From the IMG/VR virus record IMGVR_UViG_2563366928_000004, positions 1 through 9,117 of that record: a stretch of 9,117 nt of DNA; one strand, 5' to 3'. This document shows, one piece after another, positions 7,423 through 8,310 of the stretch. The position numbers were made by a program, and so were the translations under genes. Each line of letters starts with the position of its first letter. Position 1 is the stretch's first letter. The notes beneath the pieces were generated by a model, which saw only the letters and a list, made by a program, of their open reading frames with translations, made no database searches and had not been told where the DNA came from. Source of the DNA: a virus (lineage: Duplodnaviria > Heunggongvirae > Uroviricota > Caudoviricetes).

Positions 7423-7439
7423 GGTTCTTTCCACCATCT

Positions 7440-7452
7440 GAAAAATAATTCT
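7440..7452. repeat. 13-bp direct repeat gaaaaataattct, copy 1 (copy 2 at 7594-7606)
   Basis: Exact 13/13 identity seen directly; the two copies bracket about 140 bp of AT-rich DNA just upstream of nanS-p. Confidence 0.6.
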
Positions 7453-7593
7453 TTAAAATACCTGACATGTAATACAGAAAAAACACAAAACCATACCTTA
7501 AATAAAAACCTCATCATCAAGCAGATATGCATGGATAAACTACAAGACGAGATATAAACCACCCTGCATTTAAATAAACAATAAACAACATCA

Positions 7594-7606
7594 GAAAAAT
7601 AATTCT
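7594..7606. repeat. 13-bp direct repeat gaaaaataattct, copy 2
   Basis: Exact match to 7440-7452. Confidence 0.6.
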
Positions 7607-7615
7607 GCTCTATGG

Positions 7616-7642
7616 TTTACATTCAAAAATATCATTTATACT
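7616..7642 (+). promoter_or_regulatory. Putative sigma70 promoter: TTTACA (7616-7621), 15 bp spacer, TATACT (7637-7642)
   Basis: Both hexamers are 5/6 to consensus. Spacer is short (15 bp). Lies about 40 bp upstream of the 7683 ATG, which has an AAGGAAA SD. Confidence 0.35.
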
Positions 7643-7682
7643 TTTCAGAACATCACCAGCAAGACATAAACAAGGAAACTAA

Positions 7683-8018
7683 ATGAAGTGGATTGTGATT
7701 GATACAGTTATCCAGCCATCATGCGGAATATCTTTTTCAGTCATATGGAGTAAAATAAAATTAATAATCTGGTATCAATCGGATGCTTTCTTACCTCCTG
7801 AAAGTATATTTACACTGACTCACACAGATATCATGCTCAATAACAAAGTGCTACCTGTAACCATTTACAACGTAGTACCATTCAATAAAACATTCTGGAA
7901 TTTAATCAAAAACAGCCAGGAATGTCCTACAAATACAGATAACGTATTGAATGAATGCTTTAATAACCGTTGCACTCTGCAAATATGTCCTTATGGACTA
8001 AAACAACAAAGTCCATAA
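7683..8018 (+). CDS. Hypothetical 111-aa protein in an AT-rich island at the position occupied by stxAB in Stx phages
   Basis: ATG with good SD (caAGGAAActaaATG) and an upstream promoter-like element. Opposite orientation to the late operon; low GC; Cys- and Asn-rich; no family recognised. Could be non-coding. Confidence 0.35.
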
Positions 8019-8021
8019 GGA
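7988..8021. repeat. Perfect 11-bp inverted repeat (tccttatggac ... gtccataagga) with a 12-nt spacer, overlapping the stop of the 7683-8018 ORF
   Basis: Seen directly; no flanking T-run, so it is not a canonical terminator. Possible protein-binding palindrome or RNA stem. Confidence 0.5.
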
Positions 8022-8037
8022 GTTTACTCACATCTGA

Positions 8038-8074
8038 CAAAATCAATATAAACAGCCCCTCCGGAGAGGGGCTG
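8038..8074 (-). terminator. Intrinsic terminator, minus-strand polarity: 9-bp GC stem (cagcccctc/gaggggctg), tetraloop, then U-rich tract
   Basis: Minus-strand RNA would read CAGCCCCUC-UCCG-GAGGGGCUG followed by UUUAUAUUGAUUUUG. Confidence 0.6.
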
Positions 8075-8270
8075 GAGAGTGGCGCTATGTGCCATTGCAT
8101 GGTGCCGGGTGCCTCCCGGTGAATTCAGTACCAGCACCTGAATCCGCGATTATCCCATATACCTACTCGCTGATTGCCCCTCCGCACAGGGGGATTCACC
8201 ATGCCAGTTTCTTTTAACAAACTCCCCCGCAAAACAGACAACTGTCAACCGTCTGAATTGTGAGACATTT

Positions 8271-8296
8271 AAAAAAAAGGCCCGCAAAAGCGAGCC
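8271..8296 (-). terminator. Intrinsic terminator, minus-strand polarity, 15 bp downstream of the last tRNA
   Basis: Minus-strand RNA: GGCUCGC-UUUU-GCGGGCC (7-bp stem with one G-U pair) followed by U8. Confidence 0.6.
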
Positions 8297-8310
8297 GGGA
8301 AAAATAAGTC

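Follow-up and report, generated by a model that had tools for sequence, protein, structure and literature searches.

Which genes lie between the tRNA genes and nanS-p in a prophage late region that is organized like that of Stx-converting phages, and do they take the place of stxAB? This question arises from a stretch of 9,117 nt (hereafter the window; positions 1 to 9,117 of the Caudoviricetes record IMGVR_UViG_2563366928_000004). A reading made from the sequence alone had described the interval as the stx-equivalent locus, occupied by a single AT-rich island with its own promoter and a 111-codon ORF. The gene order on which it relied, namely tRNAs, nanS-p, holin, lysozyme, and Rz, turned out to be colinear with that of phage 933W, and the interval indeed contained no Stx-like ORF. 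The tRNA cluster on the minus strand (8311-8560), comprising tRNA-Arg(TCT), tRNA-Arg(TCG), and an ileZ-like tRNA with a CAT anticodon, is 91% identical to ileZ-argN-argO of 933W; the individual genes span 8485-8560 (CAT, ileZ-like), 8401-8477 (Arg), and 8311-8387 (Arg). A promoter-like site upstream of the tRNAs (8570-8598, minus strand), where 933W has its putative pT, was recognized as no more than a match to the consensus. On the other side, a nanS-p-type sialate O-acetylesterase gene (5461-7422, minus strand) was assigned on the basis of the Pfam domains DUF1737, SASA, and DUF6645 and of the coding sequence in a 100%-identical RefSeq record. As judged from RefSeq and from the 933W alignment, the most probable start codon of this gene is an ATG at 7422 and not at 7437. 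The interval therefore extends from 7423 to 8310 and is longer than the 874 bp originally given.

Homology to 933W stops exactly at the nanS-p start codon (7423), which forms the left edge of an AT-rich cassette at 7424-8043. With a GC content of 31.9%, compared to 55% in nanS-p, the cassette matches the AT-rich segment noted before, and its place in 933W is taken by an interval of 206 bp with AsxR. The proposed single island, however, did not hold, because 8044-8233 on the minus strand is the gene for the prophage sRNA STnc100 (RF02076). The Rfam score was 131.4 bits (gathering score, 47), with the full model (1-206) aligned, and the qPCR primers published for STnc_100 have exact matches at 8184-8203 and 8111-8130.

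Identity and conservation of the 111-codon ORF

The product of the ORF at 7683-8018 (plus strand) is identical in 110 of 111 residues to IraL (c1429) of uropathogenic E. coli CFT073, which belongs to the IraM family and was described as an RssB anti-adaptor by Hryckowian et al. 2014 (PMC4045071). To be assigned to the iraL allele class and not to iraM, a sequence had to match CFT073 iraL at 95% or more of its nucleotides, have the upstream promoter region conserved, and contain the start sequence determined by RACE. Positions 7424-8275 of the window are 98.0% identical to CFT073, and both the promoter region and the start-site string are present. Over 7438-8310, E. coli AF14 is 100% identical to the window. 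The ORF is thus iraL, a prophage-carried moron that has been known since 2014. The neighborhood is also shared with CFT073, where the tRNAs, STnc100, antisense iraL, and DUF1737/nanS-p occur at the same site, in a prophage located at the pot operon. The CFT073 prophage differs in that its nanS-p is truncated, while that of the window is full length.

At the protein level, the NCBIfam model for IraM (NF007393) matched IraL with 159.9 bits at a cut-off of 121, and IraL shares 61% identity (65/107) with IraM of E. coli K-12 (b1160), the anti-adaptor of Mg starvation. Both proteins have a core of the same length and a tail with invariant cysteines (C81/C92/C97/C102); IraM lacks the four-residue QQSP extension of IraL. 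Residues 1-78 of IraL align to the solved IraM chain (PDB 8twd) with an E value of 8e-31, and a PmrD-like N-terminal beta-barrel is expected in this part of IraL by homology. The sole fold likeness of IraM is PmrD (PDB 4HN7), and both bind the receiver domain of a response regulator, the target of PmrD being PmrA and not RssB (PMC10844676). An AlphaFold model of the 111-residue protein, built on an alignment of 13 sequences, reached a pLDDT of 40.6, which is too low for a fold search. Taking the RssB-interface residues listed for IraM (PMC10844676) and reading the IraL states from the IraL/K-12 IraM alignment, we found 11 of the 15 to be identical; the remainder are T13S, L75I, H63N, and I64V. 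A Pfam search at E values up to 10 gave no match for IraL or K-12 IraM, and the protein database assigns PF11183 to members of the family. The PHROGs match of IraL is a family of unknown function.

Apart from small size and AT-richness, nothing suggests ordinary non-coding spacer with a chance frame in it. The sequence-only reading had named conserved spacer and an unconserved frame as observations that would speak against a gene, and neither was made. Across three diverged allele classes, 107 codons are free of indels and dN/dS amounts to 0.10-0.18, with synonymous sites being saturated. Together with the curated family model and the published genetics and biochemistry on iraL (PMC4045071), these data leave a chance frame with practically no probability, and the gene stands. 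It is also widespread: with the iraL class set at a nucleotide identity of at least 90% for the genome census, 1442 of the 4775 records with a match, drawn from 5426 complete genomes, had this class as their best match, and iraL occurs in approximately 26% of complete E. coli genomes.

The placement of iraL in a known moron region, with antisense orientation, an AT-rich sequence, and a promoter of its own, is typical of defence cargo, and a defence-type moron had been considered. An anti-phage defence or superinfection-exclusion protein is nevertheless very improbable, since PADLOC gave no family match at E values up to 1 and the product is 99% identical to a protein with demonstrated RssB/sigma-S function. 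As a separate matter, IraL might conceivably affect phages indirectly through RpoS.

Promoter, start site, and 3′ hairpin of iraL

All expression signals noticed previously were present on the plus strand. The promoter (7616-7642) consists of TTTACA (7616-7621), a 15-nt spacer, and TATACT (7637-7642), and both hexamers are identical in CFT073. The Shine-Dalgarno sequence AAGGA (7672-7676) is located 6 nt ahead of the ATG at 7683. In CFT073, the 5′-RACE start of iraL, obtained with mid-log RNA, opens with ACATCACCAGCAAGGCATAAACAAGGAAACCA (PMC4045071). Mapping this 5′ end onto the window placed the putative transcription start at 7650, with two mismatches over 7650-7681, in agreement with the previously suggested start near 7650. 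The fragment from -100 to +33 that complements an iraL deletion in CFT073 from the native promoter (PMC4045071) corresponds to 7550-7682 and differs from it at three positions (7649, 7664, and 7680), all outside the hexamers. Judged by the position of the start site, the hexamers would correspond to the published CFT073 promoter prediction. A spacer of 15 nt is short for sigma-70, and our consensus scan did not report the iraL promoter because it accepted spacers of 16-18 nt.

The upstream regions of iraL and K-12 iraM could not be aligned, so there is no basis for transferring PhoP regulation from one to the other, and the regulation of the two genes differs. IraL is reported to be active in unstressed log phase, unlike IraM, which acts in Mg starvation (PMC4045071), and iraM resides in a chromosomal context next to e14. 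A lone GGTTTA half-site of a PhoP box overlaps the -35 hexamer of iraL; we did not count it as evidence. Induction of iraL has been reported at 37 °C and in a fur mutant. From its AT-rich composition, the cassette may be subject to silencing by H-NS.

The iraL stop codon is covered by a hairpin at 7988-8021 (-17.5 kcal/mol). It had been described as an 11-bp perfect palindrome, and is in fact a 12-nt inverted repeat with arms at 7988-7999 and 8010-8021 and a 10-nt loop. The hairpin is specific to the iraL allele class, as neither the Stx2c-type allele nor K-12 iraM has it, and is not followed by a U-tract. It probably serves as a 3′ stabilizer or weak terminator of the iraL mRNA.

Two 13-nt direct repeats, which had been thought to bracket the island, were found as described, with the sequence GAAAAATAATTCT at 7440-7452 and again at 7594-7606, both on the plus strand. 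They extend to 21 nt at 90% identity (7432-7452 and 7586-7606), and the copies are 154 bp apart. An exact direct repeat of at least 13 nt occurred in 1.3% of block shuffles. The bracketing itself did not survive, as both copies lie inside the cassette and upstream of the promoter, the second just upstream of the -35 hexamer. For the same reason we rejected them as insertion-junction duplications. A third copy (13/14) at 8299-8312 is not conserved in 933W.

Two cargo slots on either side of STnc100

STnc100 converges with iraL, and only 25 nt separate the iraL stop codon from the STnc100 3′ end. The minus-strand terminator that had been attributed to the island exists, at 8053-8074 (9-bp stem with seven GC pairs, -20.3 kcal/mol, T-rich tail), and belongs to the 3′ end of STnc100. 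A second intrinsic terminator with a 7-bp stem and T8 follows directly after argO (8279-8296, minus strand); its homolog in 933W is the ‘terminator upstream of the stx genes’.

Alignment to 933W and to an O157:H7 Stx2c prophage, suggested earlier as a means of defining the boundaries, located the stx insertion point. The stx2AB cassette of 933W (21412-22743), after which STnc100 follows 75 nt downstream of stxB, aligned to a clean, empty junction at 8268/8269, where 933W and the Stx2c phages hold stxAB. In CFT073, this point is filled by an insert of 642 bp that carries a DUF3927 gene, and in viral contigs by TerB-like or methyltransferase-like genes. We defined stx-slot cargo as having the argO terminator on one side and STnc100 on the other, in sense orientation and read from PR′. 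By this definition iraL is not stx-slot cargo, as it is located beyond STnc100 and antisense. Instead, it has the position and orientation of AsxR and AgvB, anti-sRNAs of EHEC prophages that are likewise antisense and convergent on STnc100, at a locality that Tree et al. 2014 called the ‘moron insertion site’ 3′ of PR′ (PMC4104026). The 933W equivalent of iraL is thus AsxR, and the designation as the stx-equivalent locus had to be given up. Both AsxR and iraL are cargo that is expressed in the lysogen and reprograms a global regulator of the host, the former as a 53-nt Hfq-dependent RNA that destabilizes FnrS (PMC4104026), the latter as a protein gene acting on RssB. An RNA of the AsxR/AgvB type was not detected in the window by Rfam at E values up to 10, which returned only chance-level snoRNA matches.

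The Stx2c prophage of O157:H7 carries stx2c at the equivalent of 8268/8269 and, in addition, an IraM-family gene at the iraL position. Since both positions are filled in the same prophage, the stx slot and the iraL slot are distinct and can be jointly occupied. The window is colinear with this prophage over 6235-8267 at 71% identity. The IraM-family gene of the Stx2c phages (2851 and 1717; O157:H7) has the same slot, orientation, and STnc100/nanS-p flanks as iraL; its 107-residue product is 74% identical to IraL and 65% identical to IraM. It was present in 236 of the 5426 genomes, mostly of STEC, and our literature search found no functional study of it.

Comparison of 80 related viral contigs led to the same picture. 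The iraL slot, extending from the STnc100 3′ end to the nanS-p start codon, measures approximately 621 bp in all contigs with iraL. It contains iraL in 26 of the 80 contigs and an AsxR-like RNA in 24, the rest having a short unclassified segment, and its identified cargo is always antisense. Four examples of the gaps of approximately 170-285 bp that lack a BLAST match to iraL or AsxR yielded no Rfam family. The intervals on the stx side and on the iraL side vary independently among these contigs. This independence, the joint occurrence of stx2c with an IraM-family gene, and the distance of 224 bp between the right end of the cassette (8043) and the stx point on the far side of STnc100 already refute, through the alignments, the idea that the island took over the insertion point of stxAB as an allelic alternative to Shiga toxin. 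The two share the interval from the tRNAs to nanS-p, which speaks for the idea; we regard it as extremely unlikely.

Action of IraL in the lysogen

We consider it highly probable that the window carries iraL as a moron with its own promoter, seated in the antisense slot and not in the stx slot, whose product acts as an RssB anti-adaptor and stabilizes sigma-S in the lysogen. According to this model, iraL would be transcribed from its sigma-70-type promoter (start at ~7650) in opposite direction to, and independently of, the Q-dependent late operon, so that an ordinarily growing lysogen would produce IraL. The view of a lysogen-expressed, conversion-type moron, put forward before the gene was identified, is consistent with the start site in mid-log RNA of CFT073. 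The minus-strand terminators at 8279-8296 and 8053-8074, situated between the tRNA genes and iraL, should shield iraL from antisense read-through in the lysogen. IraL, with its predicted IraM/PmrD-like N-terminal beta-barrel, would then bind the response-regulator-type adaptor RssB, which would no longer hand sigma-S (RpoS) to ClpXP. With RssB blocked, sigma-S would be longer-lived and the general stress regulon pre-armed.

[quoted passage not shown] The RssB contact of IraL is reported to differ from that of IraM (PMC4045071), and the IraM-RssB crystal structure is therefore only a guide. RssB binding and sigma-S stabilization have thus been shown for the CFT073 allele and are predicted for the allele of the window, which encodes G49D (GGC replaced by GAT), CFT073 having G49. 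We infer from the sequence that the G49D allele is expressed and active.

This allele, together with the state of the prophage, raises the possibility that the gene is iraL by descent, dead or altered in function, and a pseudogene in the making within a decaying prophage. G49 is otherwise invariant in the 16-member family alignment, and D49 was found in only two of the 5426 complete genomes. A DNA methylase gene (Pfam N6_N4_Mtase; a pseudogene in RefSeq) is preserved as a 3′ remnant at 8601-8924 on the minus strand, cut by an IS1 element whose end occupies 8925-9117 according to the 100%-identical RefSeq record. In that record, no Q or early gene is annotated from IS1 to the exo remnant, xis, and int; the early region has been lost beside IS1, unlike in CFT073. 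On the other hand, the ORF, promoter, Shine-Dalgarno sequence, and 3′ hairpin of iraL are all intact, the RssB-contact residues listed for IraM do not include position 49, and one substitution is weak evidence for a loss of function. We therefore judge a dead or altered allele to be unlikely and maintain that IraL of the window would stabilize sigma-S.

RpoS in the lysogen is also increased by a second regulator from the same phage late region, the sRNA StxS (Sy et al. 2020, PMC7547250). StxS derives from the short PR′ transcript and base-pairs to act on the translation of rpoS (PMC7547250), whereas the window is devoid of PR′ and Q. More speculatively, and with considerable doubt on our part, the stretch between STnc100 and nanS-p may represent an exchangeable antisense slot for tools directed at host regulators, with IraL/IraM-like proteins acting on RssB/RpoS and AsxR-type anti-sRNAs on Hfq networks. 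As the iraL hairpin has no U-tract and ends close to the STnc100 3′ end, iraL read-through mRNA might pair with STnc100, resulting in mutual regulation, and the third allele, that of the Stx2c phages, might stabilize RpoS in O157:H7 alongside StxS. If this were true, the Stx2c-phage allele would affect the fitness of the lysogen or the induction of the toxin phage.

What emerges is a map of the region from the tRNAs to nanS-p with two independent cargo slots and STnc100 between them, the first used by Shiga toxin and the second by iraL, the IraM-like gene of the Stx2c phages, or AsxR. The map has a modest bearing on how the RpoS stress response of pathogenic E. coli is adjusted by prophages, and it singles out the IraM-family gene that travels with stx2c.

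Identity and conservation of the iraL gene

The product of the plus-strand open reading frame at 7683–8018 (111 aa), labelled 'anti-adapter protein IraM' by RefSeq in more than 1400 complete genomes, scored 159.9 bits against NCBIfam NF007393 (cut-off 121). It is identical at 110 of 111 positions to IraL of E. coli CFT073 and at 65 of 107 positions to K-12 IraM. Hryckowian et al. (2014; PMC4045071) described CFT073 IraL as an IraM paralogue (58.9% identity) whose gene lies on the 'potB genomic island'. Residues 1–78 of the window protein align with the crystallised IraM chain 8twd. 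A Pfam-A scan of IraL and K-12 IraM gave no match even at E values up to 10, although PF11183 is listed for IraM-family proteins in the protein database. [quoted passage not shown] We conclude that the element is iraL, an already characterised gene, and that the sRNA beside it had likewise been catalogued. The sequence-only reading was largely correct in its observation, and right in sensing a moron that has its own promoter and is expressed in the lysogen.

The alleles of iraL, the Stx2c-phage type, and K-12 iraM align across 107 codons without a single indel. The dN/dS values among these three classes are 0.10–0.18, with synonymous sites near saturation. The conserved frame argues for a real gene rather than ordinary spacer. 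In a distant search with the coding sequence as query, the best match was iraL-class (at least 90% nucleotide identity) in 1442 and iraM-like (60–80%) in 3332 of the 4775 matching records. The sole difference from CFT073 IraL is G49D (GGC to GAT, codon at 7827–7829); G49 is kept in all 15 other aligned family members, and a 48-mer centred on the D49 codon matches two of 5426 complete E. coli genomes.

In the IraM–RssB structure, the N-terminal barrel of IraM bridges the two domains of RssB and its helical linker, and its binding blocks the alpha4-beta5-alpha5 face, the site of sigma-S binding (PMC10844676). Eleven of the 15 listed contact residues are identical in the window protein, the others being T13S, L75I, H63N, and I64V. 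IraL reportedly contacts RssB somewhat differently from IraM (PMC4045071), and the structure is therefore a guide rather than a proof for IraL. The C-terminal tail of IraM was described as flexible and less conserved (PMC10844676). In IraL residues 81–105 (7923–7997), by contrast, C81, P82, C92, C97, C102, P103, and G105 are invariant down to members with 53% identity, a pattern that could possibly reflect a metal-binding or disulfide knot.

Promoter region and the adjoining sRNA

The AT-rich block is real, with 31.9% GC at 7424–8043 compared to 55% in nanS-p. It contains the proposed TTTACA (7616–7621) and TATACT (7637–7642) hexamers separated by a 15-nt spacer, a good Shine–Dalgarno sequence (AAGGA, 7672–7676), and the ATG at 7683. 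A consensus promoter scan of the window did not list this promoter because of its short spacer. The published CFT073 RACE 5′ end, ACATCACCAGCAAGGCATAAACAAGGAAACCA, corresponds to window 7650–7681 with two mismatches, and the −100 to +33 region differs from that of CFT073 at 7649, 7664, and 7680 alone (PMC4045071). Thus, both the promoter and the start near 7650 predicted from sequence agree with what was measured at an almost identical locus.

Two other predicted elements were present but differ from their first description. Copies of the 13-bp direct repeat GAAAAATAATTCT occur at 7440 and 7594; as the two are upstream of the promoter, the island is not bracketed by them. An exact repeat at least this long arose in 1.3% of block shuffles. 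The motif TC(T/A)GAAAA(A/G)TA is found three times, at 7437–7447, at 7591–7601, and inverted at 7639–7649, where it overlaps the −10 hexamer and stops right before the start site. The motif could be a candidate operator for a putative regulator. The supposed 11-bp perfect palindrome at the end of the ORF is indeed an inverted repeat, but it forms a hairpin with a 12-bp stem and a 10-nt loop (7988–8021, −17.5 kcal/mol) that spans the stop codon.

The minus-strand terminator at 8053–8074 was also recovered. It belongs to a full-length STnc100 sRNA (RF02076; 8044–8233, minus strand; Rfam 131.4 bits, gathering score 47), a stretch that had been read as island plus terminator but is actually an sRNA gene. 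Primers published for STnc_100 qPCR have exact matches in the window. STnc100 and iraL are convergent, with their 3′ ends about 25 nt apart, and STnc100 likewise adjoins iraL in CFT073 and phage vB_EcoS-640R1 as well as the Stx2c-type gene. Two tandem STnc100 copies lie upstream of the esterase or lysis genes in 640R1 (L002 6607–6795 and 7071–7264), and tandem copies also occur in the comparison loci L020, L062, L065, and L019.

Separate slots for stx and iraL

The sequence-only reading had assigned the ORF to the position equivalent to stx, an assignment that did not hold. Window 8270–8711 aligns with argO, its terminator, and the upstream tRNAs of phage 933W, and window 8096–8267 with the region 42–223 nt downstream of stxB (72% identity). 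As these matches flank stx2AB in 933W, the 1332-bp cassette maps to 8268/8269, with just two bases intervening, and iraL lies beyond STnc100. The placement of STnc100 in 933W agrees with a recent paper, which located it downstream of the stx2 operon at a distance of 75 nt. An Stx2c prophage of E. coli O157:H7 7.1_Anguil settles the question. Colinear with window 6235–8267 (71%), it is ordered tRNAs, stx2A, stx2cB, a plus-strand gene for a 107-aa IraM-family protein, and nanS-p, the IraM-family gene (L007 4001–4324) lying between stx2cB/STnc100 and nanS-p. Because this prophage carries both, Stx and an IraM-family gene coexist in adjacent slots, and iraL is not positionally equivalent to stx. 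The Stx2c-type gene represents a third allele class (74% identical to IraL, 65% to IraM). It is carried by 236 of 5426 complete genomes and was also matched in 40 phage records, among them phages 2851 and 1717. Our literature search found no functional study of it.

In stx-negative relatives, the stx slot, which runs from the argO terminator to STnc100, carries other sense-oriented cargo. This was seen in the CFT073 insert (L003 12554–13249) and in the comparison loci L014 and L058 (~750–2170), L054 (1340–2170), and L062 and L081 (~955–2075). The cargo includes a DUF3927 gene in CFT073 and genes for a TerB-domain protein (143 aa) and an N6-methyltransferase-like protein (311 aa). The 206 bp from the STnc100 3′ end to the nanS-p start of 933W contain the anti-sRNA AsxR (RF02703; L006 3985–4037, minus), on the strand opposite the late genes and hence in the same position and orientation as iraL. 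Tree et al. (2014; PMC4104026) refer to this location as the 'moron insertion site', 3′ of PR′.

Our survey covered 80 viral contigs selected for a nanS-p N-terminus at least 90% identical to that of the window. The iraL gene was present in 23 contigs with an STnc100–nanS-p gap of ~621 bp; three more had an iraL match, in two cases a distant one of 73%, but no scorable STnc100. Its orientation was antisense in every case. An AsxR-like RNA, antisense as well, occupied 24 contigs (gap 204–221 bp), a further 23 (gap 170–285 bp) held nothing nameable in the slot, and one carried the Stx2c-type gene together with stx (gap 580 bp). None of the 80 contained both iraL and an AsxR-like RNA in the slot. 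The argO–STnc100 distance varied independently of this gap: ~255–274 bp when empty, 888 bp in the CFT073 type with its DUF3927 insert, ~1036 or 1630 bp with the TerB-domain gene, ~1620 bp with stx, and ~1760–1810 bp with the methyltransferase-like gene. We found iraL combined with several of these states.

Prophage state and predicted expression of iraL

The window is the late region of a lambdoid prophage, with the minus strand as sense. ARAGORN placed tRNA-Arg (TCT) at 8311–8387, tRNA-Arg (TCG) at 8401–8477, and a tRNA with CAT anticodon at 8485–8560, all on the minus strand. The esterase (653–658 aa; DUF1737, SASA, and DUF6645; 5461–7422/7437) is followed by holin, lysozyme, and Rz genes. 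Between the lysis and terminase genes lies an ORF (1487–1867, minus) whose small product bears a TonB C-terminal domain. At 3649–4539 (minus), where RefSeq annotates a truncated YdfR pseudogene alone, a 296-aa ORF begins with 100 residues of DUF1327 (YdfR-like); the ~190 residues that follow had no Pfam match.

Two E. coli chromosomes from UK clinical isolates match positions 7438–8310 at 100% identity, and the prophage adjoins potC in one of them. A DNA methylase gene is cut by IS1 at 8925, the IS1 end and methylase remnant spanning 8601–9117. Past IS1, the identical chromosome has no annotated Q or early-region gene, just an exonuclease remnant, xis, and int. The prophage therefore appears to be defective, and iraL appears to survive inside it.

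In the lysogen, transcription from a tRNA promoter-like site (8570–8598) would be halted at a second minus-strand terminator immediately past argO (8279–8296). STnc100 transcription would end at 8053–8074, which would shield iraL from antisense transcripts. The iraL mRNA presumably ends at or near the 7988–8021 hairpin, which has no clear U-tract. Since Q and PR′ are not present in the window, the late operon should be silent, and iraL would still be expressible from its own promoter. Reported regulation of iraL is scant: its levels are up in a CFT073 fur mutant, and its mRNA reportedly rises 1.6 log2-fold upon a shift to 37 °C. What is new here is modest: the stx2c-linked IraM-family gene, the positional equivalence of iraL and AsxR, and the two-slot map of this region.
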